From Yuukianura sp. NJ FZ-2021 (lineage: Eukaryota), in contig CM102286.1 in NCBI GenBank assembly GCA_046563655.1, positions 2,914,001 through 2,978,000 on the forward strand: 64,000 nucleotides of DNA. The letters are read 5' to 3'. Made by a program: the position numbers and the translations under genes. Below the pieces are notes generated by a model, which saw only the letters and a program-made list of their open reading frames with translations, was not told the DNA's origin and ran no database searches. This document shows, in pieces, positions 3,001 through 28,300 of this stretch (positions are counted from its first letter, which is position 1; the number at the start of each line of letters is the position of its first letter).

Positions 3001-4360
3001 GAAACTATCGTGGACCTGGTTACAAACTGACCAAAAGTTGGCCAGGTTTTTGGCTCTGAGCTTATTGACAGAAATGTTGGGCCCAATATGGACTATTAGA
3101 TAGGAAAAACTAGGAATGTGCGGGCGTGACACCTCTAGTGCGTTACAAGTTCTGCGAAAATGTTACCTAGCATCTTCCAGAAGATTGGGTTTTTGTGTCC
3201 TGGCGGGAAAACCGAGAGAATAAAGCAATTTGAAATACATAAGGGTCAGGGACTAGGTTAGGGTAGGCCTAAAACCTAACCATTGGAATGGGATTGGAAC
3301 TCTAAAGTCAATTCCTAACCCTGCCGAGGGAGTCACACAATGGAACGGGAGAAAGTGGAAGTGGAGCGTTTGGAAGGCGAAGAGTCATCAGTATTCTGTA
3401 GTACACTTTCCATTTGAAACTTATTTAAAATCAAGGGGCTTCGTTTCGCGGGCTTTTCTTCTTCCTTTCGCGTTTGTGTGAAGAAGAAAGTGCGTCTCTA
3501 AAGCTGACAAATTATTTGTTTCGTCTCATTGACTTCAAAAAGTCAAAGAAGAAAGTCCCCTCCATTTCTTTCCGCCTTTGAAAATGGTTCTCCAATTAGA
3601 CTCCGCTGCTTCTCGGTAAAATTAGGGTTTGAAAATGGGCGGGAGAGCACACGCGAAATGAAAATTTTAAATTGACTTTTTGGCCCGCCAAAAACAGTCG
3701 ACAGTATTTCACACACTGTGCTGTGTGTCAACCCTCGTCTTGTTTCATTAACGAAATTCAATAAGTGGAAAATCACTTAAAACAGTCACACTTAAAAATT
3801 TGGAAAGTGTAGTTAGCGGGAAAATTGAATTTTTGAAAATACGCGTGGTGGTTTCTTGAACAAAGGGGTTCCATGTTTCTTTTTTAAATTAAAAATGTCT
3901 TTTGGGTAGAATACAAAATGGTCTCACGTTTTCACTAATTTCAAACGTTTAGAATGTTCCTCTTTGAGGATAATGGAACTTCAATTTCATTTGAAATTTT
4001 TATTTTTTGAGAAAGAAAGACTCGAAAGAGTGGGAGACTCTCCTTATGGCTTTTCCCTTGGAAATTAAATAAGAAATATGAACATCTTTTTTGAACATGG
4101 TTTCTACTTAAAAAGAAAAGGAAAGTTTGCATTTCCAAAAAGTAAGTTCAAAAAGAACCGCGGCGGCAGCAGGGGAGTGCTGAAGCAGCTTTCTCCACTT
4201 TCTCTTGATGAGAATTTTATATTCCCATAAATTAGGCCCATCTTAAAGAAAAATTGAGCAGAAAGAGAAGCTAATGATTCCCCTTTTTCTTTTTTGAATT
4301 TTCAGGTTTCTAGAACAAACTTTTGTTCAAACAGGAGCGGGATTGTTTAAATTTCGCAAA

Positions 4361-7300
4361 ATGTGGAACACGGGAAGACTCCGTTGCGGTCAAGTCCTCA
4401 ACTTTTGCTCAAATTCCAACATTCTTTGGACTGTTGTGTTCATTTTCCTGATGACACTTGACTCTGCTCTGCCCAAATTTGCTTCAACGGAGGAACTCAA
4501 GCGGAGACGAAGTGACTTTGGAGAAGGGACTGAAGGGCCCATTCCCTCTGACACTTTCATTCAATGCTACTTCAACCCACTTTGTTTCTGCAAGTATGAT
4601 CAAAAAACACAAGTACTGGACTCTATTTCAAAGTTGTGGCAGTTAGTAGGGTTCAATGGATCAGAGTTCACGAGAGTGGTGGGTCAAGCACTGGACTTGA
4701 TGACCTCTGACCCCAACACACTCTATTTTCTCACAAGATCAGAACTGACAGCGTTTGCTCACTTGGTGGCAAATTCAAGCTCCACGGCGGCAACTTCTTC
4801 GCGCCAAATGCTGTTTGAACCTGGTCCGGTTTTTGACATCGAGTGCAGTGATGTCCCAATGGCACTTGTTCCCACAGGTAAATTTTTGTAATTTCCAAAA
4901 TTTTAACATTTCCAAATTCATTTTTGAATTTAATTTTTTTGCCCTCGAAAACATACAATTAGGTTTAACCATGAAAAGTAAAAATGAAGGAAAATGGCGA
5001 AATTTCTCTGACAAAAGTTTTGTGAGTGAAAATTTTCCAAAAATTTAGTTTTCGTCTTTTTGGTTTTTGTGCTCGTTCACTATGTCTGCAGCGGCTTTTT
5101 CTGCGATGACAATAACAGCCGTGTTTGTATTTGCATTGGTGACTTTGGGCATAATTGAAGCGTCCACAACTCGAAGTCCTTTAAAACCATGGACACTAAC
5201 ACAAAATAAAAAGTTTGACCTTTGACCTATATTAAGTTTGAAAACTTTACAAAACAGGGAAAACATACCGTAGTTTTGAGTCAACGACAGAATTTGAATC
5301 TTCCGCTCCAAAACCCATTCTGCAAGTTCCCGATGCGTGGTACCACAAGATCCCTTTCTTTTTAATGTAACATTTCAAGTACCCATCACTTGGAAATTTG
5401 TTGTCTTTTGCACATTCTGGATCCTTTACATGTTCTGTTCCGAGCTCCTTGAACGCCTTGGTTTTAAAAAATTTCAGTGCCGTTTTCATTCCTGTCGAAA
5501 TTTGAATCAAAAAAATTGTCTACGTTTTGTATAAATTTTACGTAACTACTTCGTTTTTTGTGCTATTTTAATTTCACCATATTTCAGCACGCCATAATCC
5601 TCTTTGTTTTCTAAAAACTTGTAGTCAATTACAGCCAATTCAGCATTATCAATTGAATGTTGATTGAGAGCTGTAGTGTTCAGCGTTACGGTACCAAGCG
5701 AAACATTGCTTGTAGTACGACCGACCAGAACTGCTATTATGAACTGGTCTGGCGGTAACTCGTAGATACCTTTTGTATCAAAAGTTGTACCAATGAAAAA
5801 GTACTGTACATCAGGCCAATCCGATTCTCCGCGACTTTTGGCTTGCGGTGAAACAAGAAATCCTTGCGTTCCTACCCCATTTTCAGAAAGAACAATTTCA
5901 GGTCTGTGATTCAGGTAGTCTTCGAAGATTTCTTCTGTCAAGTTATTATTCACACTTGACATCTTGCTTGGATCGTTGATTTTGAACGGACCAAATGAAA
6001 TGCCTTGATGATTTTGTAAATTTTTCCCAACGGGAAGCTCTTTGCGCAGTTCAATTTTGGCTTTGTCCAGAACATCTTTTGGTCCAATACCAGATTTTTG
6101 GAGAACAAGAGGCGAAGAGTAAGTACCAGCAGAAATTATGACTTCTTTCTGGGCGTAAGCTTGGAGTTTGACGCCATGACGGACGTACTCTACGCCAATG
6201 GCTTGGTTTCCGTTGAACAAAATCCTATGTACAAGAGCGTATCGGATAACAGTCAACTTTTTTCTTTTAAGATGGGGTTGAACGTATGCGGTGTAAGTGG
6301 ATACACGCCGACCACATTCGTGCATTATATCTGATGGAGTGAATCCTGAAAAAGTTTTGAATTAAAACGATTTCTAAAAAAGTTCGAGTACCGCGGTACT
6401 ACGGTACCGCAGGATACCTTCGCGTTGTGGTCCATTTGGATCAAACACGTCGTAACCAAGTTCAGCCGCAGCTTTCTCCCAAACTGGATACATTGGTCGA
6501 GACGATGTGACAATTGTCATTGGTCCATCCGTTCCATGTTGATCTTTTAAAAAAAGATTGCTTTTGAGATTCTTAAAGTTTAAAAAAGATAAAAAGAGTT
6601 TTAAAGTTCATGTTTAAAACAAGATGCAAGAACCTGATTTTGGCCACATCCCGTGGTATGACTCGGCTTTTCGAAAATATTTCAGCAAAGAGGCATACGT
6701 CCAACTGCTGTCCTTTGAAACTTCTGCCCATAGGTCATAATCTTTTCTAAAAAATGCAAAGAACGCATTTCAATTTGATATTTTTAAGAATTTGCTAAGC
6801 GTTGCTTACGGATGACCCCTGTTGTAAATGATTGCATTGTGAGATCCACTCCCACCAAGCATTTTACCCATTACATCATCCAGTTTCTGTAATATTACTA
6901 TATTGAATATCATGGCAAAATATATGAATCAACATTAGAACAAAATTTCCAAATTACACGATTGTTGACATTCTTCTGTGGTACGGTAGTGTAGAAGTAG
7001 TTAATGTCTGGTGAGCTTCCGATGTATTCATAAAAGGCGGGTACTTGACCTAAAAGCGGTGGTTCACCACCAGCTTCAAGAAGAAGTACTTTGAAATGCT
7101 CCGATAAACGTCCAGCCATGACACATCCTCCCGTGCCACCCCCAACTAAAGCACAGGTCAAAATTTTTATCATTTTAGGAGAATTTCTAAAATTTGGAAA
7201 AATTTAAACAACAAAATTACATCAAATATTTACCAATTATAAAATCATATGTGGGCTTCGACGGGTGTTTTTCCTCGGCATGAAACTGTTTTTCGTCAAT

Positions 7301-10300
7301 TCGTCGCAGCTCATCAGTTGCCTGGCGTATGACATACGGAAGAGCCGTAAGAATTATTGCAGCAAACGAAGCGACGCCCATCCTTAACTTCTGTGCTTAC
7401 TTAAGCATTTAGTGTCAATAAAAAGTCAAACTTGGTTCAAATGGCCTCGAAGCGGCAAATTTATATCGAAGTTTTTTTTTCTGAATACAGCACCAGTTTT
7501 GTAAAGACAATACCTTTTTAGTTGAGAATTGAATAATAAAAGGGAAACCTTGAAATTAACTTTTCTGAATGCAATTTAGATGGTTCCATTTTACGTCATT
7601 TTCTAAGGACACCGCCATAACGTCGCTACGTTTTGAACTTGACATGTTGAGCGGTTTATTTACATTTGCAGAATAATTGCATTAGGTTAGTTTTTTATAT
7701 TCACGCAGTATATCCATACAGGCTTTTTCTAAGATAACAACTACATCGGCGTTTAATTAAATTGGCATTTGTAATTTGCGGCATGATTGAAGCTTCAATT
7801 CGAAGCTTCAATTCGAGTTGTGGATGCTAGCATCCACAACTCGAATTCCCGTAAATCCATGGACACTAAATAGAAAACAAAAAACTCTTGGTTGACATCC
7901 AGTGATATAAAGATTTGTAAATATTGAGCAATTAGGATATTTATACCGTGTACACCGGAGTTTAGAATCAACAACAAATTTGAATCCTGCTCATGCTATA
8001 GTTTCAGTTTCAGTTCGGGAGACAATAATATGCCAAGTTGAAGTCTAGCATTGTCTAATTCGTTAAATTAGAGCTCAAATCTGCCTACCAAACTACCATT
8101 GCATATTGCATATCGCCTAATTTCTGAAAACGGTTAGTTGGGTTGAGAAGGGGCATTGTATTTTGTATGTAAATCAACATTGAACCAAACTATTTAGCGC
8201 CTGCTTCTTTATTGCATCACTTCCAATTAGTAGTTTGATTGTGGTTATTTTTTGAATTTAAATTTGATACTCATGCAATATATCTGCTGCTGCCTTCTCT
8301 GCGATGCCAATTACTGGTGCATTTGTATTTGCGTTTGTTACGCGCGGCATAATCGAAGCATCCACAACACGAAGTCCCGTAAATCCATGAACCCTAAATT
8401 CAATCCAAAAGTTTGACTTTTGACCTCTACTGAAAAAGTTGGCAAATTTTAAATAATGAAGGCTACCGTAGTTTAGAGTCAACAACAGAATTTGAATCTT
8501 GCGGTCCGTAGCTCATTCTGCAAGTTCCCGCAGCGTGAAACCACACACTTGCTTTCTTCTGAATATAGCAGCGCCAGTAGTCATCGCTCGGGAATTTGTG
8601 GCTGTTGGCACATTCTGTATCCTTCACAAATCTTGTTCCAATAGCTTTGAATGCATCACTTTTGAAAATTTTTAGCGCCGTTTTTATTCCTGCCAAAAAC
8701 CAAAAATAGAATCATTTCGTATGAGTTTTGTGTAAAAAACAAAGAATTCCATTCGAGTAATATTTTTTGTGAATTCCAAGTCTTACCAAATTTGAGCACT
8801 TCGTAATCTTCTGGGCTTTCTAGGAACTTATAGTCAATTGTAGCCAATTCCGCGTTGTCAATAGATTGTTTACGAAAAGCTGAAGTGTTCAGCGATACGG
8901 TACCAAGCGATACTTCATTAAATTCTGGACGACCAATGAGAACTGCCGAATAAAGGTAATTTGGTGGTGTAGCTGCGATTCCGCCACTACCAAAATTTGT
9001 GCCTATAATAAAAAATTGTACGTCGGGCCAACTTGATTCTCCACGACTTTTAGCTTGCGGTGAGACAAGGAACGCTTGTGTTCCTAAACCAGTTTCAGAT
9101 AGAACCATTTCATGTTGCAGGTTTAAGTAGGCTTCAAAGTTGGCCTCGGTTAAGTTATTGAAAACATTGGATAGTTTGCTTCTGTCGTTGACTTTGAACG
9201 GACCAAGTGAAAGTCCTTGGTGATTTTGTAAATTTTTTCCAACGGGAAGGTCTTTGCGCAGTTCAATTTTGGCCTCTTCCAGCACATTCTTAGGTCCAAT
9301 ACCAGATTTTTGGAGAACCAGGGGAGAGGCATACGTTCCAGCAGAAATTATGACTTCCTTTTTAGCGTAAGCTTGCAGTTTGACACCATGTCGGACGTAT
9401 TCTACACCAATGGCTTGAGTTCCGTTGAATAAAATTTTGTGTACAAAGGCGTATCGCACAACGGTCAATTTTTTTCTATTAAGGTACGGTTGAATGTAAC
9501 TGTTGTAAGTGGTCACGCGTCGACCGTCTTGCCGCATGAAGTCTGATGGAGTGAATCCTGAAATAAAAATTTTGAATACAATTTTTTTTTAAATTTCGAC
9601 ACAATATGGTTACCTTCACTTTGTGGTCCGTTTGGATCGGAAGTTTCGTAACCCAGTTCTGACGCGGCTTTTTTCCAAGTCGGATAAATTGGGCGCGAAG
9701 CTGTGACAAGTACCATTGGTCCATGTGTTCCGTGTTGATCTTTTCACAAAACATATTTTTTCGGTTAGATTTTTGTTTAAAATTAACTAAAAAGAAAACG
9801 AGTTTTTGTTAAAACCGAAGTAAAAATTTACCCGATTTAGGCCAAATCCCTTGGTATGATTCCGCTTTTCGAAAATATTTGAGTAAAGACTCGTATGTCC
9901 AACTTGAATCTTTTGAAATTTCTGCCCAACTGTCATAGTCTTTTCTAAAAAAGGTTAAAAAATTTAACTCAGAAGGTGATTTTGAAATTTGGAAATGTTG
10001 CAAACTTACGGATGACCTCTGTTATAAACCAGAGCATTGTGAGACCCGCTTCCTCCAAGCATTTTGCCCATGGTATCTTCAAGTTTCTACAACAGTATCA
10101 CAATAATGTGTCAAAACTAACGCATTCACATGAACGTAATACTACCAAAACTCGAAGTAGGGTTATGAATTTTCAATTTTACACGATTGTTGACGTTTTT
10201 TTGCGGAATAGACGTGTAAAAGTAGTTGATGTCTGGTGAGCTACCGACGTATTCGTAGAAGGCTGGAACAGAAGCTAAAAGCGGCGGTTCACCACCAGCT

Positions 10301-13300
10301 TCGAGAAGAAGTACACTGAAATGTTCTGACAGTCGCCCGGCAACTACGCATCCAGCCGTTCCAGCGCCAACTAAAATTTTGAAATTGCACAGAATGTAAT
10401 TTAGAAAAACGTTAAAAACATGTTAACAATATATACAAAATATTTTAGTTACACACCGACAATGAAATCATAGGAATTTTTGGAGCTGTGCTTCCTTCCG
10501 GCAAAAAATTGTTTTTCGTCAATTCTTCTTAGCTCATCTGTTTCTAGGCGCAAAAGGTATGGAAGAGCTGTAAGAATCGCATTAGCAAAAAATGCGACAC
10601 CCATCCTTAAGGGTCTGGACTTAGCAACTCTTTAGCAAATTTACAGGAGTTAACTCACAAATTTAATGCGTGTTAATCTATAGACACAAATTTGTTGTTG
10701 TAGTCTAGTGTCTTTGAAGCTACTTGGAATTAAAAATCGATTGTAATTTGAAGTACTGTTTTACTGCTCCATTTGCCGAGTCGTAAACTTTCTTAAATTG
10801 TTTGAGACCAAACATTAAGCTAAGCTTACTGAAGCACATCATAACAATGTTCCAATTTTTAATAACAATGAAACCTATACTTTCTCCCTTTAAAATTTAT
10901 TTAAATTTCAAAAATGAGTTCCAAAGTTTGGAATATGGAAACCCAGACTCTAAGTTTTTGAAAAATATTTGGCGCCGTTTTCCTCATTAACACAACTATA
11001 CTAACTATAGATATTTTCGTAATATTTAACTTAAATTTTCATGTTCGCGTAGAATGTCGTTTGCCGCCTTCTCGGCGATGACCACCACTGCTGCATTTAT
11101 GTTTACATTTGCAATTCTCGGCATGATTGAAGCATCTATAACTCGAAGTCCACTAAATCCGTGCACACTAAAGACAAGCCAAAAACTTTTAGTTTGACCT
11201 TATGTAACAAAGGTTTACAAAATTTTGAGTAAAGATTGTGTTTATACCGGAGTTTTGAGTCAACGACAGAATTTGAATCTTGCGGTCCGTAGCTCATTCG
11301 GCAAGTTCCCGCTGGGTGAAACCACACAGTCGCTTGGTTCTGTATGTAACAGCGCCAGTAATCCTCGCTTGAAAATTTGTAGTTTTGGGCACATTCTGGG
11401 TCCTTTACATATCTTGCTCCTATAGCTTTGAATGCCTCTGTTTTGAAAATTTTTCTCGCCGTTTTTATTCCTAATAAATTAAAAGGCAGTGAGCAAAGTT
11501 TTTTGTTTGTCCGATAATTCCAAAATTTTACCAAATTTTAGCACTGAGTAGTCTTCTCGGCTTTCTAAAAACTTGTAGTCAATTAGAGCTAATTCTGCAT
11601 TATCAATGGACTGTTGCTGAAAAGCAGAAATGTTTAGCGATACTGTACCAAGCGATACTTCGTTGAATTCTGGACGACCAACGCGTACTGCTGCATAGAG
11701 GTAATTCGATGGTGTAGCTGAGTTAACGTCACCAACAAAAGCTGCTCCTACTACTGGAAAAATAAGTATGTCAGGCCAACTCGATTCTCCACGACTTTTG
11801 GCTTGCGGTGAAACAAGAAATGATTGTAGTCCTGAAGTAGCTTCAGAAAGAACGCCTTCATGTTGTAGATTTAAGTACGCTTCGAAGTTAGCTTCCGTTA
11901 AATTATTGTTAACAGTGGATAGTACGCTAGGGTTCTTGACCTTGAACGGACCAAGTAAAACTCCTTGGTGATTTTGTAAATTTTTTCCAACGGGAAGGTC
12001 TTTGCGCAGTTTAATTTTTGCTTTGTCCAGAACATCTTTTGGTCCAATACCAGATTTTTGGAGGATCAAAGGAGATGCATAAGTACCGGCAGAAATTATG
12101 ACTTCTTTTTTGGCGTTAGCTTGCAGTTTGACGCCATGTCGGAGGTATTTTACTCCAACGGCATGATTTCCATTGAACAAAATCTTATGAACGAAAGCGT
12201 ATCGGATAACAGTCAACTTTTTTCTGTTAAGATTGGGTTGAATATATGCTGTGTAAGTGGATATACGCCGTCCATCCTGGCGCATGACATCTGCCGGAGC
12301 GAATCCTAAAATTATAATTATGAAATTAAAATAATTTCTATGAGGTTTGTGGTTCGCGGTACCTTCGGTTTGCGGTCCATTTGGATCAGACAGTTCGTAA
12401 CCGAGCTCGTATGCAGCTTTCTTCCAAACGGGATACGCAGTTCCTGAAGACGTAACCAATGTGATTGGCCCATTTGTTCCATGTTGGTCTTTAAAAAAAA
12501 TCTTTTTTTTTGTAAAGAAACAAAAAGTATGCTAAAACGTAGAATCTCCCGTTCGCCAAGCGAACTAAAATCACAAACTTACTTGACTTCGGCCAAATTC
12601 CTTGGTAAGATTCAGCCTTTCGAAAATATTTCAGTAAAGAGTCATATCTCCAACTTGGATCTTTTGAAATTTTAGCCCAGTTATCAAAACCTTTTCTAAA
12701 AAAAATTGGAAACTTATGCGATGCCTTATTTCAAAATTACAAAGACAACAATAGAAATGCCTTACGGATGACCCCTGTTATATTCAATTGCATTGTGCGA
12801 CCCACTTCCTCCTAGCATTTTACCCATAGTATCCGTAAGTCTCTGCAAGAAGTGACAAAATTTGAATAACTGTCAACTGTGTTATTTGAAGTAAATAATT
12901 TGAAGCTATTACACTTACACGATTGTTGATGTTTTTTTGTGGAAGAGAAGTGTAAAAGTAGTTGATGTCTGGTGAGTTTCCGACGTATTCGTAGAAGGCT
13001 GGGACAGAAGCTGTAGGCGGTGGTTCGCCACCCGCCTCAAGAAGAAGCACATTGAAATGTTCCGACAAACGTCCAGCCACGATACATCCAGCAGTGCCGG
13101 CACCAACTAAGAATTATTTTGAAACTGCTCCAAGTGTGTAACTCAAAAACGTTAAAAAATTTTTTTGACAAAATATGAAAATTGTTGGTAAAACGTACCG
13201 ACTATAAAATCATACGTATTTTTAGAGTTGTGTCTTCTCTCGTTAACAAATTGTTGTTCGTCGATTCGTCGTAGCTCGTCTGTTTCCAGACGCAGAATAT

Positions 13301-16300
13301 ATGGAAGGGCTGTAAGAATAACTGTAGCAAATGAAGTGACTGCCATGGCTAAAGTCTAACGTGGATTGGCTTCAGTTGGAGTTGAGGTAAAGTTAAGTAA
13401 GAAATTCAGTGCAAATTAATGCTGTGACACCAATGTGTCAAATTGTAGTCTAGTATTGTCTAATTCGTTTTTGAGCTCAAATCTAACTAGAAATCAATAA
13501 TTGTTAAAGAAACCCGTTTTTTTTTTCGGCGAAGGGGGGGGGATTGTATTTCAGATGCAATGATTATGATTATAACTTTGATTATGGTTTATTTTTGAAT
13601 TTAAAATTGATACTCGTGAAGTATTTCTGCTGCTGCTTTTTCTGCGATGGCCACAACGGCTGTATTTGTATTTGTGTTTACAATTTGCGGCATGATTGAA
13701 GCATCTACAACTCGAAGCCCCGTAAATCCATGGACACTAAACAGAAAGCCAGCAAGTTGACATTTTACATCTACTGAAAAAGTTTGGACATTTTTAAGAA
13801 TGAAGGCTACCGAAGTTTTGGGTCAACAACTGAATTTGGATCTAGCGGTCCGAAGCTCATTCTACAGGTTCCCGCTGGATGATACCATAGACCTGCATTC
13901 TTCTTAATGTAACAGCGCCAGTATTCATCGCTTGGGAATGTGTGTGTTTTAGCACATTCTGGATCCTTTACATATTCTGTGCCAATCCTCTTGAATGCAT
14001 CAGTTTCAACAATTTTTAGCACCGTCCTCATGCCTACCCAAACCAATGTAAAGAAAATTATTCGCTTAGAGTAATATTTTTTTTTATGAATTCCAAGTTT
14101 TACCAAATTTTAACACTTCGTAGTCTTTCCGGTTTTCTAGGAATTTGTAGTCAATTCTCGCCAATTCCGCGTTGTCAATAGACTGTTGATGAAAAGCGGA
14201 AGTATTCAGCATTACGGTACCAAGCGAAGAATCGCTAAATTGTGGACGGTCAACGAGTATTGCCAAATAGAAGTAGTTTGGTGAATTAGCTGCGAAACCA
14301 CTTCTACTCCCAAATTTTTTCCCTACAAGACCAAAATTTGTTCCGGTCAAGCCAATCTGTGTGTCTGGCCATTCCAACTCTCCTTCCTCCTTAGCTTTGT
14401 CTGAAACAATGAACGCTTGTATTCCTAGCCCAGTTTCAGATAAAACAAATTCGTGTTGTCGGTTTAGGTAGGCTTCGAAATCAGCCTCGGTTAAGTTGTT
14501 GTAAATATTGGATAATTTGCTTCGGTCCTTGACCTTGAACGGACCAATGGGAACCCCTTGATGATTTTGTAAATTTTTTCCAACGGGAAGGTCTTTGCGC
14601 AGTTCAATTTTGGCTTCTTCCAGAACATCCTTAGGTCCAATACCAGATTTTTGAAGGACCAGCGGAGATGCATATGCTCCAGCAGAAATTATGACTTCTT
14701 TTTTGGCGTAAGCTTGGAGTTTAACACCATGTCGGACGTACTCTACGCCAATGGCTTGAGCTCCATTGAACAAAATCTTGTGGACAAAAGCGTATCGGAC
14801 AACAGTCAACTTTTTTCTTTTAAGGTGCGGTTGAATATATGCGGTGTATGTGGATACACGCCGACCATCTTCGCGCAATACGTCTGCTGCATTAAATCCT
14901 GAATAATAAATTTAAATTGGAAAGAATTTTTATAAGTTCCACTTGTACGGCAATGCGGCATTAGAGTATGACAAACACGGTACCCTCTCTTTCTGGTCCA
15001 TTTGGATCGAACGTGCCGTAACCCAGTTCAGTGGCGGCTTTTTTCCAGGTCGGATAAATTGGGCGTGAAGTTGTAACGACTGTCAAAGGTCCATGGGTTC
15101 CATGTTGGTCTGATTGCAAAAATTTCATTTTTGAGCGTCAACCCAACATTTATTCGAATAAGGTTTGCCGATTTACCAGATTTTGGCCATATCCCATGGT
15201 ATGACTCAGATTTTCGAAAATATTTGAGTAGAGAGGCATAGGACCAACTCGAATCCCTCGAAATTTCTGCCCAAGCATCATAACTTCTACTGCAAAGTTT
15301 TTAAAATGCCTGCTACAAAGGTTATTTTGAAATTTTGTATTGTATGACACTAACTTACGGATGACCCCTGTTGTTAATCATAGCATTGTGAGACCCACTT
15401 CCACCAAGCATTTTGCCCATGGTATCTTCAATTATCTGAAACACAAAGGCACAAACTCTAGAATAACTCTAATATACACATTAACATTAACTTTGAAAGT
15501 TACGCGATTGTTGACGTTCTTTTGTGGAATAGACTTGTAAAAGTAGTTGATGTCGGGCGAATGTCCGACGTATTCGTAGAAGGCTGGCACAGAAACCAAA
15601 GGCGGTGGTTCACCACCAGCTTCCAGGAGAAGTACATTGAAATGTTTCGACAAGCGTCCAGCAACGATGCACCCAGCAGTTCCAGCCCCAACTAAACCAT
15701 TTCAATTATACTAACATGTTTAAATTTGAAAAGTTTGAAAAAAAATCAAAATATTTCTACAAATGCGCACCAACTATGAAGTCATACGTAGGTTGAGACT
15801 TTTGCTTTCCTTCGGTAAGAAATTGTTTTTCGTCAATTCGTCGCAGCTCCTCTGTTTCTAGACGTAGAAAGTAGGGAAGGGCTGTGAGAACCATGGCGGC
15901 AAATGACGCGACTCCCATCCTTGAAGTTTAAGTTTAGTTTAACTAGAAATGTTAAAAGTAAAATGAATGCTCCTTTCTGCTTATTGCATAGGCAAGGCAC
16001 CAGAATTCCAAATTGTATTTAGGTTATGGCATAATTTGTCAAATTTTGAGTTCTTATTCTATGCCACATGACATCAGCTTCTCCTTCTAATTTTTGATAA
16101 CTGAATGTCGAAACAATTTCTCACATTTCTTGAAAAAATTTACTCTCATAAATTAATGGAATATATTATAATTCCAATAATCTTTTAAGTAGTTTTCAAT
16201 TCGGTTGCAGAAAAACGTTTTCTACTGCTCTACTATATGTAATGGATCAAATTAAGAAACACATAGTAGGCAGTGGAAAGTTGTGTGTAATGCATTTATA

Positions 16301-19300
16301 AGAGGAACGCATTTCCCAGTGTTCATCGTGAGATCTTGTTAACAAAACTTAAAGAAAATTTCAAATGAATGATTTCTGGTTGAGAGACTACTTTAAAGAC
16401 AGACTTCAGTATGCTGAACTTCTAAACAATCTGATCCTAAACCAAACATTACTGGAGTAATCCAACAAAATGTACTTGATCCGCTTTTCTTTACGTATTT
16501 TATCAATGATTTGGAGAAAGTACTTGACCTGGTACGGGTCATGACATGGTCATTGGTGAAGACTGGAATGAAATCGGACCAGTAGTTTCTGAGATAAAAA
16601 TTTCGAACTGACAGACAGACAGACAGACAAACTACTTTTGTCATAACAGCTTCGCTATTATAATAACTGGAGCAAATGACCTGACTGCCACGACTAAAGT
16701 ATAAGGTTGATTTGGTTCAAATTGAAGTGAAGTAAAACAAGAAAATCGGTGCGAATTAATGCTGTGACACTAATTTGTCCAATTGTAGTCAAGTATTTTC
16801 TATTTTGTGTTCGAGTACAAATCTAACTCAAAATCCATCATTTTACTTGCAAGCAAACTTATCGTTTTTTTTGGGGGGCGGGGGAAGTTATATTTGAGGG
16901 TTAATTTTTACGGCTATGTTTGAATTTCAATTTGATACTCGTACAGGATATCTGCTGCTGCTTTTTCTGCGATAACCACAACTGCTGTATTTGTATTTGT
17001 GTTTATAATCTGCGGCATGATTGAAGCATCTACAACTCGAAGCCCCGTAAATCCATGGACACTAAACAGAAAGCCAGCAATTTGACATGTTACATCTACT
17101 GAAAAAGTTTGGACATTTTTAAGAATGAAGGCTACCGAAGTTTTGGGTCAACAACTGAATTTGGATCTAGCGGTCCGAAGCTCATTCTACAGGTTCCCGC
17201 TGGATGATACCGTAGACCTGCATTCTTCTTAATGTAACAGCGCCAGTATTCATCGCTTGGGAATGTGTGGGTGTTGGCACATTCTGGATCCTTTACATAT
17301 TCTGTTCCAATCCTCTTGAATGCATCAGTTTCAACAATTTTTAGCACTGTTTTCATGCCTGCCCAAACAAATGTAAAGTATTCGCCTCGGGTAATATTTT
17401 TATGTGAATTCCGAGTTTTACCGAATTTTAATAGTTCGTAGTCTTTCCGGTTTTCTAGGAACTTGTAGTCAATCCGCGCCAATTCCGCGTTGTCAATAGA
17501 CTGTTGATGAAAAGCGGAAGTGTTCAGCATTACGGTACCAAGCGAAGAGTCGCTAAATTGTGGACGGCAAACCTGTGTTGTCAAATAGAAGTAGTTTGGC
17601 GAATTAACTGCGATACCATCACTACCCACAAAATTTGTTTCTATAAAACGAATTTCTATGTCTGGCCAATCCGACTCTCCTCGCTCTTTAGCTTTGTCTG
17701 AAACTATGAACGCTTGTACTCCTAACCCAGTTTCAGATAAAACCAATTCGTGTCGTCGGTTTAGGTAGGCTTCCAAGTCAGCCTCAGTTAAGTTGCTGTA
17801 AAGATTGGATAATTTGCTTCGGTCATTGACCTTGAACGGACCAATGGCAACCCCTTGTTGATTTTGTAAATTTTTTCCAACGGGAAGGTCTTTGCGCAGT
17901 TCAATTTTGGCTTCTTCCAGAACATCCTTAGGTCCAATACCAGATTTTTGGAGGACAAGTGGAGAAGAATATGTTCCGGCAGAAATTATGACTTCTTTTT
18001 TGGCGTAAGCTTGGAGTTTGACGCCATGCCGGACGTACTCTACGCCAATAGCTTGAGCTCCATTGAACAAAATCTTGTGAACAAAAGCGTATCGGACAAC
18101 AGTTAATGTTTTTCGATTAATGTGCGGTTGAATATATGCGGTGTATGTGGATACACGCCGACCATCTTCGCGCAATACGTCTGCTGCATTAAATCCTGAA
18201 TAATAAATTTAAATTGGAAAGAATTTTTATAAGTTCCACTTGTACGGCAATGCGGCATTAGAGTATGACAAACACGGTACCCTCTCTTTCCGGTCCATTT
18301 GGATCGAACGTGCCGTAACCCAGTTCAGTGGCGGCTTTTTTCCAGGTCGGATAAATTGGGCGTGAAGTTGTAACGACTGTCAAAGGTCCATGGGTTCCGT
18401 GTTGGTCTGTTTGCAAAAATATCATTTTTAGCTGATAAAACCGATTTTTTTTTCAAAATCAAATGTTTTTGTCGCCAAAGCGTAAATCTAACATTTCTTT
18501 GAATTAGATGTGCAGGTTTACCAGATTTTGGCCATATCCCATGGTATGACTCAGCTTTTCGAAAATATTTGAGTAGAGAGTCATAGGACCAACTCGAATC
18601 CCTCGAAATTTCTGCCCAAGTATCATAACTTCTACTACAAAGTTTTTAAAATGGTACCTACAAAGGTTATTTTGAAATTTTCGATTGTATAGCATCAACT
18701 TACGGATGACCCCTGTTGTTAATCAAAGCGTTGTGAGACCCACTTCCACCAAGCATTTTGCCCATGGTATCTTCCATTCTCTGCAAAACATGGGCACAAA
18801 TTCTAGAATAGCTCTAACATACACATACACCTTTGAAATTTACGCGATTATTGACGTTTTTTTGTGGAATGGACGTGTAAAAGTAGTTGATGTCTGGCGA
18901 GTGTCCGACATATTCGTAGAAGGCTGGCACAGAAGCTAAAATAGGTGGTTCACCACCAGCTTCCAGAAGAAGTACCTTGAAATGTTTCGACAAGCGTCCG
19001 GCAACGATGCACCCAGCAGTTCCAGCCCCAACTAAACCATTTCAATTATATTAACATTTTTAAATTTGAAAACTTTGAAAAAAATCAAAATATTTCTACA
19101 AACGCGCACCAACTATGAAGTCATACGTAGGTTCAGACTTTTGCTTTCCTTCGGTGAGGAATTGTTTTTCGTCGATTCGTCGCAGCTCCTCTGTTTCTAA
19201 GCGTAGAAAGTAGGGAAGGGCTGTAAGAACCATGGCGGCAAATGACGCGACTCCCATCCTTGAAGTTCAGCTTTACATTAACTGGAAATCTTAAAGGCAA

Positions 19301-22300
19301 TGTGTCTTTTTCTGCTTATTGCATAGGCACCAAATTTCCAAATTCTATTTAGGTTATGGCATAATTTGTTAAATTTGAAGTGCTTATTCTCTGCCACATG
19401 TCATCAGTTTCTTTTCAATTTTTTATAACTGGATGTCGAAACAAAATGAAAAAAAACTCCTTTACTAAATTCAGAGCAGAGCCAAGAAGATATTGTATCT
19501 TCTGCATTAACTCGGGTTTGGAATAATTAGAAACCCGAATGTAGAAAAGAAAGTAATACGCCAAAATTATTTACAAATTCTTTTTCCCTTTGTTGTTGCA
19601 ATTGAACTGTAAATCCTCAAACCTATTTTCAGACGCTTAACCTGGGGCCCAGTCGATGGGTGATTTCAAATGGAGAAAATAGTTTGGAAAATCAAAGCTA
19701 TTATAATGGCTTCCAAATAGTTGCAATATGGAAACCCAAACTGTAAATTTCTTGAATGAATTATTCAGCGCCTGTTTTTGAAAGCCAATAACTCAATAGA
19801 ATTGCATTTGGATCATAGGATTGGAATAATGGGAAACCTTGAAAATGACTTTTCCAAATGCATAAAGACGCAGTTTAGAGGTTTCCATTTAATGCATTTT
19901 CTAAAGACACCACCAACGAGCAGCAGCGGGTGATTTGAAAACCCAAGTTCCTTTAGCATACGATTTCCTTATGTCTGAAACCTGCTGAAAAGAATTTCTC
20001 AACTGGAAACTGTTTCTGTTCAAAATAGGATCAAATGCAGAGGTGGAGGTTCGATTCCTTCTTCAGCTGAGGTGAATTTCGTGAATAGAGGAAAGCGCTA
20101 AAACGAAGTTTTGAATTTCCCGCGTTGTCCTCCCTGCGTTTATGCCTTGCTCCGACTGTTGGCGGGAAGTTATTAGACTCAAGGGATTTCGAAAAGGTCC
20201 TTAACACTCCCATTTATTGCCATCGAAGAGTCCATCTAAATTGGATAAGGTATTCAGGCCATTTTGGCGGGAAAGGGAGACGATTCTTTTGGTTCAGTAC
20301 AAAAGCGAAGTTGTCGCTGAAGTGAAAGCGACATGCAATTCATCACTATCTGCAACGACGACGCTTAGGAAATAACCAACAGATTTTAAGTAGATGCAGA
20401 ACGCAGAATCCAATTCAGAACAGAGAAAAAACAAAATTAACGACTTCCTCTTTCCCTTTGACTAGAAAAAGAGGGGAAAAACGTAAATTTTGGAGAAAGT
20501 ACCAACCCATTACTTTTTTCTCCACCTGATTCATGCATTTCAGGAAAACACAAAAAAAAATTCAAAAACAAAATTTCGCGGGCAGAAGCTCAAATCCCCA
20601 TTGGCCACTTTTTTTTTAACGATTACATTCAAATTGCCTTTGGAGAAAGTTAGAGCGCAAGTATTCAAAACTAGCATTTCACACTACAAGAAGAAAAAAA
20701 AACCTTAACCTAATCTGACTCATTACGTTTAAGTTTTAAATTTTTCTCAAGGTAGCCAACTAAGCTTTCTTTTTGAAAATTGTTGTTTGAACAGAGTTCA
20801 GTGCGCATGGCGTCGTGTCCCAAGTGAGCGTGACTGGCTCTCAACTGACAATGTTGGATGGGTCTGCCTTTGCCGGGTTAGATGTCCAGGGAATTCGTCT
20901 CTCTCGCAACCAACTTTACTACATCTCGGAGTACGCCTTCAGGTAGGTTCATTACAACCTGACCTAACTTTCTCCTTAGTTCTATGTTTATATTACTCCT
21001 TCTAGTAGTAACAACAACGACAGAAGAAATGGCGGGAAATAAACTTGAATTTGACTTTTATTTTTATTTGGACTACTCCCGGCTCCCGCTCTTTTCATTC
21101 ACAAGTCTTCCCTCTTCTCTTAATCACCTCCCGACTTCCTAAAAATAAAAAAATCAACTTTCCCCAAGAGACTTCCTTCTCCAAAAACATAAACGGAGAA
21201 GATCACTTTCTCTTTTCTGGTTCAGACTTGAGTCTGTTGGTAGCAAGTAAGAAAATGACTGTAGAAGAACTGGCTTGAACGTCTGCTATTTTTTTCTTAG
21301 GATTTGATGATGTTGCATGAGGTTTGGTTAGTTAGGCTCATGCTTTCATCATCCAAATAGCTCTCAAAATCCCACAAGCAACTGTTCATAAACATTAACC
21401 GTAACACCCGTAAGACTGATTTTCCGCAAAAAAAAATATAAAAGGAAGATGCAAACTTTCTCTTTTCTAATTTTCTGGTTCATTTTATCTTTACTCAGCA
21501 TGTTAGTTTTGAAATTAACAATTGAGATACTAACGACTTGTACTTTAAGTGACTTGTATTCTAAATATACATTGATATTAAATTTTTGCCTAGCATTTTT
21601 CAGCGAACGCAACGAGAGTTTTGCTTTCTTCTGCCATGTTTTGAGTTTTTCTGGTTCCAGAACTGTTACCCTGAATTCGAAGCGTGCTTTCTAAATTGTG
21701 TAACAACGAGGTTAGGTTAGGCTTGGAAAATTGTAGAAAACGGGAGAGATACTGTGTCAAGTATAGCTGGAGATGCTGCCAGCACAGCACGGGTGAAAGT
21801 GGTCCACTGCTAACTGTCTCTTTGGATCTCGAGAGAGTGCTTTCTCCTTTGCTTCCTTTTCCACTGCAATTCCAGGAATATGTTCTTGGGATAAAATTAT
21901 CTACTCATAAAAGACATAATTTTTGTCCCAAAGCCTACCGTATGTCCAATGTGCACACTTTCCCCAAACAGCAGAAAAGTCAAGGCACACTTCATATAAA
22001 CTTAACCTAGCCTAAATTTAACCATTCCCAAAAAAAGTTCCGTTCAGCAATTCTAAAATAGCTCAGCACTTTTCTTAATTTAAAATCTCACATTCAAAAT
22101 AAAAGTCAACGTAGGCCGGAAACAGCAAGTGTACAAAAAAAAAAAACTATTTTTGTTTCTTTCAACTCAAAATTTCTTTGTTTTCTGTTTGTGTTTTTTT
22201 TTAGTTTTTGCTTTCGGAAATTTTTACAACAAACGTGTTTTTGAAAGTGAAGTGAATTGGATTTCAAAAACAAGAAACTTCAAAAGAGCAGCGAGCGGAC

Positions 22301-25300
22301 ATGTTGATGTTTTCGGGAAGTGATATTTGAGGAGTTCCGTATCGAGTGACAGCTCCAAATCCTGTTTGGATCTATTCAGAGTCTGTTGAAAGAGAAAAGT
22401 GATCCTTGTGCGTGTGGTTGTTTTCACTATGTTGTGTGTATGACATAACATAGTAAGAACATAGCCTAACTAGTAATGGATCTAATCCTGCTCTGTTTTT
22501 CCTTTGCAGCTCGATGAGCAGTTCACTGGGAATGCTGGATCTGTCAAGTAATTCCCTGGATGAAGTCCCCCTCACTCCCTTCAGAACACTCAAGTTACTG
22601 GAGTGGCTCAATCTTAGCAAGTGAGTTCATACTTTCTACTTTCATGTGCAGTTCAACCTAAACCAGCAGAGAAATTCAAAGGTTCCGCTGAAATTAACTT
22701 TTCTGAAGGAAGCTTCAACTAAATCCTCTTGTGGCCAAAGATGCTCCTAGCATATCGCAATTTCAATTTTTTTTCCTTAGTCGAAGTAAAAAGCGTTTTC
22801 AAAATGAAAAACTTACAAAAAATCACTTACCTGCGCAGTTATTGCCGAACGCTGAAAAATGAACCTGGTTGAAACCTAAAGTGAAAGTAATGTAGCTCTT
22901 GAGGTGAGGAATTTTGAAATTGGCGATTAGATCAAGCTGGCGAACCAAAATTTAAAATTTTATGAATGCTTAGAATTGAAAAACTTTGAGCAGGAAACTG
23001 CTTGAGTTTGAGATGATTTAGGGATTTTGTGTCAATAATGGGCAAAGTCCTTGAAAGTTCATAAGGGGCAAGAGACTTTCACTAGAAAAAGTTGCGTGGC
23101 GTCCATTAATAATTCTTTTTGCTTTCCGTTCTACTCAAAGCAGGATTCGTTCCTCCGCTTTTACTTTTTTAAGTGAACTTTATTCATGAACTCCTCTTCT
23201 TGGCTTGAGGGGTCATGACCCCTTGATGTTTGGTTTCCCTTAAGTAAAACTATATTGTAACCTATGTTCTCCCTAACAATGGCATCTGTGACCCTTATGG
23301 TCTTTCGAAGTACTTCGAGACACAAGGGGTTCCTAATCAATCACTTTCTATCTTCCTTCTGGAGTCCTTAGCCCCCCGCCCAATTAATCATCATTTTTAT
23401 CTCCTTTCTCCTCCACTGAAACGCGCTGGAGGACTTTCTCCCTATTTTTAGAGTGGTGCTGGCGCTAACCTAACCTACGTTTTTGGCCTTCCCTTTGCGT
23501 TAAGAATGATCTGCCTGTTCAAGCATTCTGCTCAGCCACTGCAACGACCACAAACCGTTATTCTGTTTGAGGTTGAGAAGGCGCTGAGGGAGCGTCGTGG
23601 CGGTGGAGCGTAGTTCTCTGGGCTTCCTTCGACGTAGAACGGATGTGGCGGGAAGATGATGAATGAAAGATTATTCATTACCCCATCATCATTTTAGCCT
23701 TGTTTCCAAAATCTACAACCATTGGATTACTGCTGGTTCTCTAGCTTAGGCTAAAACCTAGCCTTGTGTGAAAGGAAAACTGAGACAAGGGAGAACATAA
23801 GTAATTAATCACGCAGACATGGATTTCAATAGTCCTCACGATCTTTGAACACGTTTCAAATCAATTTCGCGGTTCAGTTTAAAACAAATTTTGGAAATTT
23901 GAACTGTCACATTCCAAAACAATTTAAAACAAAACAAAAACAGGAATTCCAAACCACAAAAATTAGAGCAATTAGTTTTCTTAAAAGCAAAATTTTCAAA
24001 AACACGGAGTAAAAACGGTGTTGAAAATTTAGCATGTCGAGGTGAAAGTTTTAAATATTTTAGAAGAGCCAACCGAAGTGTGTCAGTGTTGTACAATGCG
24101 TGCGTGTGCCTAGCTTTTCAAATTTTGTTTTTCAAAATCGATTTGAATTTGAACGATTGTTTACGTTTGGTGCCTTCAAAAAGAGAATGTTGTTTTAAAA
24201 TAAAAGACAGTTTATACACTACAAGAAAAACGGTTTTGAAATATTCAAAACCAGCGTGTGTCCATTTCAAACTCTCCAGCCTCATTAGGAATCAAAATTT
24301 TCTATTTTTCTTTATTGTTTGCTGTCAGTGGGTTTTTGTTTTTCTACTTTGGGAATTGTGAGATTCTATGATTATGCCTGAAAATATTTTCGCCATAATT
24401 GGGCATTGCGAAACTGCGCTCAACGCAGAGACTACAATAGTGCTTGTCAATTGGAAAGCCATTTGGACACATGATGCCCGCTTTTCGGCTATATTGTTTC
24501 TTGTTCAAAAAAAGCGTCGGAAAAAAACAACAACATACGATTCTGTATGCGTCCAACACTCAACACTGTCAAACGACACATAGGAGAAGTCAATTGTCTC
24601 GCATTTCTATAATTTGGGAAAACGTAACTATAAATGAATGCTGAGCAGCGACGCATTTCAGAAAAACTGTAGATTTCTCTTGTTCAAGTTCTTTTGAATA
24701 GGAAGAGACTAGAAGAATTGGTTTTGGTCTTCTGGAAACGCATTTCTGCGACTTGCTGAAGAGGACTATTCACACCACTTTGTCCGTCTGTCTATCCGCA
24801 TTTGTAGAATTGGTTTATGACATTTCATGTTTGAGCATAGAATTTACTCATGCTCATTTCCATCTTTTAAACAATCTGTTGGTATTCAGTTGTAATTTTG
24901 TCAAAACTTTTACGTTTCATTTTTTTTTCAAATTATACAAATTTTTACACAGTAATCTAGTTTTCAAATCTAAATATAGTAGATGAAAGAATGGAACAGA
25001 ATTTGGTAGATAATTTGCAACAAAACCTAATAATTTATAATATGTATATACACTAATTCATAGATGTACTAATACATAAACGATATTTCTATACAGTAAT
25101 TGTAGATTGTGTAGAGTAATTGAATCTGCAAATTCGACTGTGTTCAATCCTTGAGTACAGACGTACTTTATTTTCGAAAGCATTGAATATTCCACGTCCT
25201 TGCGCCTATTTGTTGAGGGAATCGTACACAATAGGGGCATATGGTAGGGACAGAGCGTTAGTTAGTTGGTCCTCAATGGCCATAACACAGACTTTCTCCA

Positions 25301-28300
25301 GTCGCCCATAGAGTGAAATGTGGTGGACAGAATGGGAATGTTGGACTCTGATTAGCTAAAGATAAATCCAATGGCTTTTGTAGCCCTTTAGAAGAGGTTT
25401 CTAGCTTTTTCCTTGTTATGGTAACAAAAGGAGAACAATGCCCAACTACGTTTTGTGCTACTAAGGAATTGCCACTAACTCACGTTTTACAATGAAAACA
25501 ACAAAAGTAAAATTCTTCACAGTTTTCTTTTTCCTGTAGCAATTACTGCCTCAAATTGCCATTCTGAACAAATTTTAGAAACGGTTTGCTAATTTGACAA
25601 CTTTACAATAATGAATGCGACTAGCGGAGAAAGCTAAAAGCCTACTCTTAGTCTACTCTAACCTACAGCTAAAACTATTTTCAAGCGTTGCAACCCAGCC
25701 TTTCCTCAATAGCGGAGTATGTAAAATAAAACTCATAGTTAATGCAAAAAAAAAACCCTTTTCCTTCATTTATTTTTCCTTTTTCTTGAAAATTTTAAAG
25801 AGAAAGGGCGGTAATTTTGAAATTTTAGTTTTGCTTTTACCCGTCTGTTGTCATTTCTCTCGCTCTTACTTTTTCCTTCTTAAACGTAACGCAGGTTGTG
25901 TTATGAACTTCTTACACTTTTCCCGCATTCTGTTTGTATGTTTTCCAACTTGAGAGAGTGAAAGTAAGATTTCTCGGGCAGAGGAAGGGAGGGAGGTCCT
26001 TGTTCCTTGAGCTTATGAAATCCTGCTGAATAATGCATGAGCCCTTCAAGCCGTCTCAGCATCCCTTCATCCCTTTAACTTCGTGTGCCAAGTCCATTCT
26101 GCCGTCCTTCAGAACAGCACACAGTTCCTGTGTGGCGGCGGAAATTTCTTGTCAGTCAAAGGGTTCTACCGGAGCCTTATTTTCAGTTCTTCTCTCCAGA
26201 GACTTGGACGGAAGGAAGTGAAAGTCCTGTGTTCCCTATTATTCATTGCTCGAGGGAATGAAGGAAGGAGATGAGAAGGCAATAATAACCTACCATAAAT
26301 AATTCCTACCTCTTCCAACTTAACTTTTCCCGCCTAATAGGCTCCAATTCAAATAGACTTCATTTCCCAGTAGAGCGCGTCCATCTACCATGCAAAGCCT
26401 ATTGCCCAACTCACTTTCAATTTTAATCCCTCCACTTTCGAGAAGTTCAGATTCCAATTTGTGGTCATGGGAACCACAGACTATGGTAGGTTAGTTATAG
26501 ACTATGTGTGATAGAAAATAGGCATTTGTTCATTGGAGCTTGAGCAGATAGAATGGTCTAATGGTCAATTTGGGTAATGCGCCTGTCCAGAACTTAAGGA
26601 TGGAAAGCTTATTGTTTAACAAGGGAAAGTACTATAATTTAAGACAGGAAGATGCCCGGCTCTGATGGCGGGCAAGCGGAAGAGTGCTGTACTATAATTT
26701 GACGCGCCGAACTTTGAACTAGTGGAAATGATGATGTCATGGAAACTACAAATCCGCACTTGTCTCGGTAACGCTTCCCTTCTGCTCCAATAAATCACCA
26801 AAACCTCAAAATGGAAAAGTGATAACAGAGAGCTGAAAAAAGCGCTGGAGCGGAACGTAACTGGGGCGATGACCGTTTGAAACCGTGAATTTTTGCTGGT
26901 CAAGAGTGCTTGCGAGAAGTGGGCCACTACTGTCTTTGGCCATTGACAACAAGACAAAAATGACAAATGCGAAACACGATCTGCATTTACTTGCATATTT
27001 TTCTTAACAGAAATTTTGTGAAAGTTTCGGAATTCTTATTAAAATCTATTTTACAAAAAACGTGGGAATGAAATACAAAAAATGTTGAATTTTTTTTAGA
27101 TTTTCAGATTTGAAAATTTTTTGAATTTTTTTCAGTAATCTGTTAGTATCTCTCAACGGTGACTGGTTTGGAGTAGCCGAGTCTCTACGGAAGCTGCTCG
27201 TGTCTTCCAATTCGATTGACCTTTTGCCACATGACCTCCTGCGTTCCTTCAGACGCTTATCATGGCTCGACCTTAGTCACAATTTTATAAAAAATTTAAG
27301 TACGGGTTCTTTACCGCCAAATCTTCAGGTGAGCCTTTTTAATGTATTGTATGAGTTATTTATTTCAATTTAAACTGTTTTCGTAATGAAATTTTTGAAT
27401 TATGTGGTCCAATTCTTGAATTGGGTCAAAGGTTCCGCTCTTTATTCCCCAGTTTTCTCCCTTTGTTCAATTTTTCTCTTTCTCTTTTCACAAAAAATGT
27501 CAACTTAATTTGCAAAACTTTTTTTCATTTTTTTTGGGCACAGACTGAGTCTCTGTGCCGCAAGCAAAATTTTTACTTTGGGAGAAAGTTAATTTGAATT
27601 CCATGGGAGAAAGGAGAGAGAAGAAGACGCGGGAGGATTTAAGTGAAATGACAAGTTGAAGACTTTCTCTTCCATGAATACTCAATTTTATAATTAAGCT
27701 TTCCCTTCCGTCCTCTAATTAATTCACAATCAACAGGAGGAAGTGAGAGCTTTTCCAAAATTAACTAATCTCTGCATTTACTTTTCAAAAAAATCTCAGA
27801 ACTTGAAATTTTTTAATGCTAATTTAGCAGAATCTGAGAATTTGTTGAGGATTTGAATTTGAGTTTATTTATTACTTTTTAAAAAATTTAAGAAAGTCTC
27901 ATCTGCTATAATTTAAATTTAATTGGGCTTCTAATTAAATCTATCGCTTTCACTTTACTACTCAACTTAACCAAAATTTAAATTGGAAAACTTTTTTATC
28001 ATTGCCGGAAATGAAAAAGAAAAGAAAATCCTCCAACTTTGCAAAGTCGGTATTTGATTCTCAGAGATTCTGAAATTTAATTTCCTTTCTCCTCTAAAAG
28101 ATTTTGTTCTTTTTCGTACTAGTTTAGATTTCGTTTTGATTTTGCGGGATAGTTTTACAATTTTGAGAATTTACCATTCCTCTTTTTGAAATTGCTCCAA
28201 TAGACGCTGAATTTGGTCCGAAATCGCTTGACGCATATTCCCTCTGCCGTCTTTCATCTCGAGTCCTTGACGTGGTTGTTCCTCAGCGGATGTGCCATTG

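Follow-up and report, generated by a model that had tools for sequence, protein, structure and literature searches.

Five tandem GMC oxidoreductase genes nested antisense in a predicted intron of a chaoptin-like gene in the springtail Yuukianura

In the springtail Yuukianura sp. NJ FZ-2021, five intact genes of the GMC oxidoreductase family and a GMC relic lie in tandem within what is predicted to be a single 15.9-kb intron of a chaoptin-like leucine-rich repeat (LRR) gene, on the strand opposite to that of their host. The window, by which we mean the whole analysed stretch of 64,000 nucleotides, is C4:2914001-2978000 in an assembly whose 22 contigs total 98.7 Mb, and the closest named proteins to its genes come from Allacma, Orchesella and Folsomia. 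The nest is a variation on an architecture known from insects, where a GMC cluster occupies the intron of flotillin-2 that comes directly after the exon for residues 1-16 (Iida et al. 2007, PMC1891103), with a new host gene, a new GMC lineage and no functional tie to the host in evidence. Taken jointly, our results are likely to reflect a lineage-specific entry at the DNA level into an already existing LRR intron, followed by tandem multiplication and with no link to the host.

Table 1. Predicted features of the host gene and of the nested cluster (window coordinates)
Feature	Position	Strand	Remarks
Host exon 1 (first coding)	4361..4877	+	signal-peptide-like stretch and cysteine N-cap; ends in phase 1
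Host intron	4878..20794	+	15,917 bases, GT...AG
Host exons 2-15	20795..40159	+	LRR array, cysteine C-cap, hydrophobic tail
Host exons 2-6	20795-20942, 22510-22620, 27136-27328, 28204-28377, 28731-29052	+	
Host exons 7-11	30125-30812, 32438-33221, 34232-34303, 35818-36015, 36209-36412	+	
Host exons 12-15	37994-38262, 38324-38490, 38708-39067, 39825-40159	+	
GMC gene E	5045..7381	-	8 exons, 597 residues, intact; Pfam GMC_oxred_N on large exon
GMC relic	7686..7975 (ends approximate)	-	end of exon 7, intron, frameshifted exon 8; between D and E
GMC gene D	8258..10604	-	8 exons, 593 residues, intact
GMC gene C	11026..13346	-	8 exons, 596 residues, intact
GMC gene B	13601..15918	-	8 exons, 601 residues, intact; 91% identity to A
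Short dispersed repeat with CTGT microsatellite	16525..16666	.	in spacer between the two youngest copies, A and B
GMC gene A	16914..19257	-	8 exons, 598 residues, intact; Pfam GMC_oxred_N and GMC_oxred_C

The host gene and its long intron

The host model comprises 15 exons over 4361-40159, with GT-AG boundaries in all 14 introns and a reading frame open over 1,513 residues. At the long intron the donor reads ACAG/gtaaat (4877/4878) and the acceptor gaacag/AG (20794/20795), and the joint gives ...ALVPT-E-FSAHG in phase 1. As for homology, the Allacma fusca protein P0001 (CAG7730685.1, named Chaoptin in UniRef and encoded on a 92,822-base contig) aligns by its residues 131-239 to 4547-4876 (52%) and by its residues 239-288 to 20791-20940 (78%), crossing the joint of exons 1 and 2 without a gap and with nothing missing, while 14 further segments of it follow in order up to 40078 (E<=1e-4, identity >40%). 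Moreover, exon 1 encodes both halves of the cysteine N-cap. Of 13 arthropod relatives aligned, 12 have this cap directly joined to their first LRR, and the 13th is without that end. Inside the intron none of 125 LRR proteins gave a match at E<=0.01, and Rfam gave no match at gathering score over window 1-41000. The first-pass annotation had proposed that exon 4361-4877 ends in phase 1 and is continued at 20795, and that the gap is one intron with five GMC genes and a relic on its other strand; both proposals are borne out, the former by the splice sites, by P0001 spanning the joint and by the open 1,513-residue model, the latter by the homology across the joint and by the five intact minus-strand models. 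It is thus confirmed, at the level of gene prediction, that the sequence 4361-4877 and that from 20795 onward belong to one LRR gene and that the gap is a single intron.

In its overall build the host shows a leader, a cysteine N-cap, a long LRR array, a C-cap and a hydrophobic tail, where the leader and the tail of glycosylphosphatidylinositol type were judged by eye. An acceptor-like sequence ends near 4304, and a non-coding host exon may lie upstream of it. The best insect and crustacean matches (P0008, P0003 and P0010) reach 28-39%, against 25-27% for the group of the record named chp, which suggests that the host is a chaoptin-like paralogue instead of a one-to-one chp orthologue; as the chp record falls outside the group of the best insect matches, chaoptin-like is the fitting label. 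Among the best 120 of 275 matches to the host there was no orthologue from Folsomia or Orchesella. Relative to its insect relatives the host carries long insertions at window 4640-4820, 30330-30600 and 32680-32870, and one of about 70 residues within the N-cap is conserved in Allacma and in a metagenome locus, L081, to which we return below.

Structure and lineage of the five nested genes

The five GMC genes, labelled A to E, stand in tandem in a single orientation antisense to the host, and their predicted proteins of 593-601 residues are translated without stop or frameshift and share 69-91% identity pairwise. Pfam GMC_oxred_N scores above its cut-off in all five large exons and GMC_oxred_C matches at all five loci; the motif GxGxxG for flavin adenine dinucleotide (FAD) is present in each, as is, by alignment, the catalytic His/Asn pair. 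Gene E ends with its stop codon 167 bases away from the donor of the host intron, in agreement with the distance of about 170 bp given by the first-pass annotation, and an ATTAAA stands 57 bases from that donor. The ratio of non-synonymous to synonymous substitution rates (dN/dS) is 0.15-0.25 in all 10 paralogue pairs; pseudogene status of the five is ruled out by these values together with the intact frames. A and B form the youngest pair (dS 0.17), produced by duplication of a 2.8-kb unit together with its flanking sequence (13309-16116 and 16654-19444, 87%), while dS among the paralogues reaches 1.09. In the substrate-binding part, whose boundaries were drawn from general knowledge of the GMC fold, dN exceeds that of the rest of the protein in 10 of 10 pairs and dN/dS is 0.19-0.39; in one loop, for example, 18 of 40 columns differ between A and B. 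The raised dN in this part fits a divergence of substrates among the predicted enzymes.

Three details of the cluster may be added. Gene A reads NQQG at 17863-17855, where the other four genes read NHQG, and we take this site to correspond to the 'DH' motif usual in GMC proteins. The repeat between A and B matches at least 41 further places in the genome (42 are listed including itself, 40 having been scored of 159 candidates), and we presume a resemblance to DINE-1-type elements. The stretch 19828-19915 upstream of A resembles 7539-7617 upstream of E (74%), possibly as the remnant of a shared promoter.

To place the five among their relatives, 47 further GMC models were built from the genome, of which 44 have at least 500 residues, so that the full GMC genes number about 51 when the five nested ones and two close paralogues are counted. 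Two trees were used, one of 164 rows and one by IQ-TREE of 46 rows hand-picked from those 164. The larger tree leaves aside 38 of 150 database representatives that fall outside 430-700 residues (five shorter close matches being retained), two GMC fragments, one C5 copy scoring identically to another and three copies from a duplicated block; the reference sequences of Iida et al. are in neither tree and their Greek-letter subfamilies are therefore left unassigned. A further homologue search over 3,747 candidates at E<=1e-30 returned no GMC, the threshold being too strict.

In both trees the five nested genes group together as a single clade (100/99). C4:3110216, a gene located on the same contig 177 kb further on, is sister to them (100/99), followed by C5:9334663 and then by a trio at C4:1619-1628 kb, and the enclosing branch of 21 rows (100/100) has named members solely from the springtails Orchesella, Folsomia and Allacma. 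Among these, P0136 of Orchesella dallaii and P0155 and P0151 of Folsomia candida belong to the same clade as the five and carry the same GGSGSHN motif, at 36-37% identity over the large-exon region; names of such springtail relatives as 'glucose dehydrogenase [FAD, quinone]' or 'oxygen-dependent choline dehydrogenase' are automatic. C4:3110216 and C5:9334663 have all seven intron positions in common with the five, which points to copying at the DNA level; retroposition of the nested genes is ruled out by the same seven introns. As for their surroundings, C4:3110216 is flanked by a Jun-like gene and a haloacid dehalogenase (HAD) hydrolase, C5:9334663 by unassigned frames and an LHFPL-like exon, and the trio at C4:1.62 Mb by CD36-like and Hsp20 genes. 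In a scan of long coding-like frames, no split host gene was found around any of five other GMC loci, namely the two closest paralogues and three other clusters. The HAD-like gene adjoining the closest paralogue (L006:7716-8408, minus strand) is a single open frame of microbial-type look, and so is the look of a SnoaL-like frame at L013:5629-6228.

Relation to flotillin-2 and origin of the nest

The genome also possesses the classical arrangement. Its flotillin-2 is on contig C2 (PDB matches: flotillin-2, E 1e-20; flotillin-1, E 4e-9), and together with its GMC nest it occupies C2:561644-573473 on the minus strand (L018-L019), with nine exons modelled, a frame open over 388 residues and a first exon of 16 residues. 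One antisense GMC gene lies in intron 1 (7,393 bases), at the position described by Iida et al. for insects, and a second one, also antisense, lies in intron 3 (2,784 bases). These two genes are sisters (100/99); they are separated from the five by a 100/100 branch and fall, without firm resolution, among rows with planthopper and ostracod proteins. An exclusive clade of the five with the two was rejected (P value of the approximately unbiased test, p-AU, 6e-89, for a group named after the first tree was known). It is thus supported by the tree, by the p-AU and by the presence of the classical nest on another contig that the nest in the LRR intron is separate from that in flotillin-2, as the first-pass annotation had held. 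The flotillin-2 nest itself is very probably older than the split of springtails and insects, and if so, the springtail copy dates that arrangement to before the insects; in the literature searched, which covered few subscription papers, we found no published account of a springtail flotillin-2 GMC nest or of such a dating, nor any report of a GMC cluster inside an LRR gene.

The LRR nest and the insect cluster are alike in being tandem, of one orientation, antisense, placed within an unrelated host gene in the intron that follows its first coding exon, and grown through tandem duplication (PMC1891103). They differ, however, in their host, a chaoptin-like LRR gene here and flotillin-2 in insects, and in their content, since the five genes belong to one recent clade (69-91%) whereas the 10-12 genes of the insect cluster represent ancient subfamilies (27-69% in Drosophila; PMC1891103). 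The five are members of the insect cluster neither by host nor by GMC lineage. For the LRR nest no sign was found of the deep conservation known from the insect cluster. Among 160 candidate metagenome stretches scanned for the host locus one was confirmed, L081, which is 51% identical in host exon 1 and has its donor at the same codon and phase, while no GMC gene was found in the 768 bases of host intron that it covers. This implies that the intron predates the present lineage and that a GMC gene at its start is not shared.

From these observations a course of events can be proposed. The host intron would have been present first, and a single intron-bearing GMC gene would have entered it as a DNA-level copy of a free-standing relative, the nearest being C4:3110216. 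The antisense orientation would have been tolerated because the splice and poly(A) signals of the GMC gene go unread on the host strand. The five genes and the relic would then have arisen by tandem duplication, probably through unequal crossing-over, with A and B last, and the copies would have been retained owing to divergence in their substrate-binding part and not to a link with the host. The nesting itself is most likely a tolerated accident. In fact, in Drosophila nearly 10% of genes take part in nested structures, 71% of the nested genes are antisense, most arose by DNA duplication, and the correlation in expression of nested genes with their hosts equals that of random pairs (PMC3814207). 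These figures render the recurrence less surprising and a functional link unnecessary. Thus the earlier suggestion that the architecture has recurred holds in so far as a second nest exists with a different host and GMC lineage; it is less surprising than was implied and calls for no functional link. Co-regulation of the host with the GMC genes is unsupported.

Several points weigh against this account. The splice of the host and the expression of the five GMC genes are predicted from sequence alone. The flank check covered five loci and long coding-like frames, so that a nesting in untranslated introns would have escaped it. L081 is a single locus with 768 intron bases, and a nest deeper inside its intron, hence an older nesting, would be compatible with it. 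Finally, the faster change of the substrate-binding part may stand for relaxed constraint in place of new specificity.

Selection for the nesting is an alternative to which we give a low probability. Under it, host and GMC genes would share enhancers or take turns through transcriptional interference, as proposed for flotillin-2, and GMC genes would be preferentially kept antisense in introns. In its favour GMC genes lie antisense in three separate introns of this genome (the LRR intron and introns 1 and 3 of flotillin-2), gene E ends close to the host donor, Iida et al. speculate on co-regulation (PMC1891103), and selection against co-expression of nested pairs has been described (Assis 2016, PMC5174743). 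However, only 7 of the approximately 51 GMC genes are shown to be nested and none of the five other loci examined is; antisense nesting is the default in Drosophila, where nested genes are usually not co-expressed with their hosts (PMC3814207, PMC5174743). A similar case is the TipE/Teh cluster in CG18675, like the LRR nest a multi-gene nest of duplicates in one long intron, whose genes correlate poorly with their host, though unlike the LRR nest it concerns another gene family and is conserved across insects (PMC3240667). For flotillin-2 itself Iida et al. regard accidental transposition as the parsimonious hypothesis (PMC1891103), and the GMC cluster of Cnaphalocrocis is reported to lie outside that gene (PMC12734113).

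Equally improbable to us is that the nest is old in springtails, or that the intron formed around a resident GMC gene, with the free-standing paralogues having escaped as Iida et al. propose for flotillin-2. The dS of up to 1.09 indicates that the array is not very recent, and L081 reveals only the first 768 intron bases; against this, three successive outgroups (C4:3110216, C5:9334663 and the trio) in the same genome show no host gene around them, and one entry is simpler than three escapes. Five named GMC relatives from Allacma and Orchesella cincta have nothing in common with the host record beyond one case, a weak argument as the records are 50% representatives only. For the same reason it is uninformative that none of three named Allacma GMC representatives is on the contig of P0001 or has an adjacent accession number.

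The region also occurs in a second copy close by. C4:2,689,136-2,801,831 and C4:2,801,978-2,928,181 are collinear in blocks of 87-96%, mostly 93-95%, identity; the duplicated block of 113-126 kb (about 94% identity) covers window 1-14181, and its copies flank and adjoin the same gap of 100 N. In the upstream copy, which ends inside gene B, the order is exon 1 of the host, gene E, relic, gene D, gene C and the 3' part of B; no downstream exons accompany its exon 1, which differs from that of the window by four synonymous and no non-synonymous changes, and a downstream host exon is single-copy. Between the copies dN/dS is 0.28 for C, 0.14 for D and 0.06 for E, which indicates purifying selection in all three pairs. 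Because an exon 1 copy lacking its downstream exons still differs by four synonymous changes only, the upstream block is in all likelihood an uncollapsed second haplotype and not a true duplication, and if so, gene counts in this region are inflated; on the duplicate-block evidence the three upstream GMC copies were rejected as extra genes. The 581 bases beside the gap (window 13601-14181) are 100% identical between the copies, where the remaining cluster differs by about 4-5%; this identity may be due to a haplotype switch or to conversion. Another assembly duplicate is perhaps the pair of GMC loci L038 and L039 (C5:10.51 and 10.64 Mb), which are on opposite strands with identical search scores. 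The gap, the block ending inside gene B and a host splice predicted from homology would allow exon 4361-4877 to come from another transcript or from a misassembly, leaving the GMC genes intergenic, yet this is very improbable, as that exon encodes an N-cap contiguous with the first LRR in relatives, phase and residue numbers agree exactly at 4877/20795, the window contains no N, the second copy repeats the order of exon 1, E, relic, D, C and B, and a downstream host exon is single-copy.

The nested architecture being common in itself, the LRR nest is only moderately surprising. A genome which carries an old nest of two genes in flotillin-2 and a younger, unrelated nest of five in an LRR gene provides a natural comparison, and one that bears on the question of Iida et al. 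whether the flotillin-2 location is an accident or serves co-regulation. The side results, namely the older flotillin-2 nest and the candidate covalent-flavin clade described below, are as interesting as the LRR nest.

A candidate covalent flavin site

All five nested proteins read GGSGSHN, whereas in most GMC proteins the residue preceding the Asn is small or hydrophobic. The motif histidine is found in 12 of 51 genome models and in 6 of the 92 database representatives with a residue there, the latter having been chosen by likeness to gene A and so not being a fair sample. The same stretch reads GGCSTHN in the pyranose dehydrogenase of Agaricus (4h7u) and GGCSSHN in the choline oxidase of Arthrobacter (2jbv), so that these enzymes share with the five a His in the pattern K-x-x-GG-x-S-x-H-N, and the His/Asn catalytic pair of the five is as in choline oxidase. 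In a gap-free alignment the motif His of P0136 falls on residue 128 of the 4h7u chain (602 residues), that is His103 of the 577-residue protein, and the motif also aligns with the histidine two places before Ser101 of choline oxidase. Overall both structures are distant, with E values of 7e-39 and 7e-32 to P0136, and are not its best PDB matches; the motif was matched directly in both from the exon of a paralogue, at a weak E of 0.6-0.9, while a 25-residue exon from the window gave no match against PDB.

His103 of pyranose dehydrogenase binds FAD covalently, and loss of the bond slows the reductive half-reaction a thousandfold (PMC4148704). Choline oxidase likewise carries a covalent His-FAD, the two enzymes being of the 8-alpha-N3-histidyl-FAD type. 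The five are animal proteins for which the bond is predicted from the motif, and we hold the chances about evenly balanced that their FAD would be bound in this way to the histidine of GGSGSHN. Counting against it, the sister paralogue C4:3110216 is without the histidine, which implies that the residue is dispensable in the clade, and flavinylation is by itself no determinant of oxygen reactivity (PMC3541233). No covalently flavinylated GMC protein of an insect or springtail was reported in the literature searched. Two GMC genes outside the clade (L049:1778-1837 and L048:1927-2004) carry GGCSSHN, the same as choline oxidase, and P0204 of an oribatid mite has a near form; the motif histidine seems to have arisen or been retained more than once. 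The motif offers a testable handle on a covalently flavinylated family of animal GMC proteins.

The N-termini of the five are hydrophobic (mean hydropathy over 15 residues 1.7-2.1), and we infer that they would be FAD-dependent oxidases or dehydrogenases of alcohols or sugars, secreted or anchored. As substrates we would guess dietary, fungal or xenobiotic alcohols. For a dietary or toxic alcohol the grounds are solely that in Orchesella cincta glucose dehydrogenases rank with the largest lineage-specific families and with the families linked to metal tolerance (PMC4987106), and that GMC genes are expanded in one Folsomia strain (PMC10087712). A bolder view, which we consider unlikely as a whole, would deny that the recurrence is by chance. 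Selection would retain GMC genes of hexapods antisense in early introns of membrane-associated hosts, as in the three introns of this genome and in flotillin-2 since before the springtails and insects parted, and the LRR nest would be a nursery of a springtail-specific family of covalently flavinylated oxidases; within this view, the selected recurrence is the unlikely part. Besides, in a clade of five other GMC genes (C5:4141-4152 kb, C7:6590 kb and C4:3491-3497 kb; L055-L058) together with P0158 of Orchesella, the catalytic His is replaced by Lys, and these proteins are predicted either to have an altered chemistry or to be non-catalytic.

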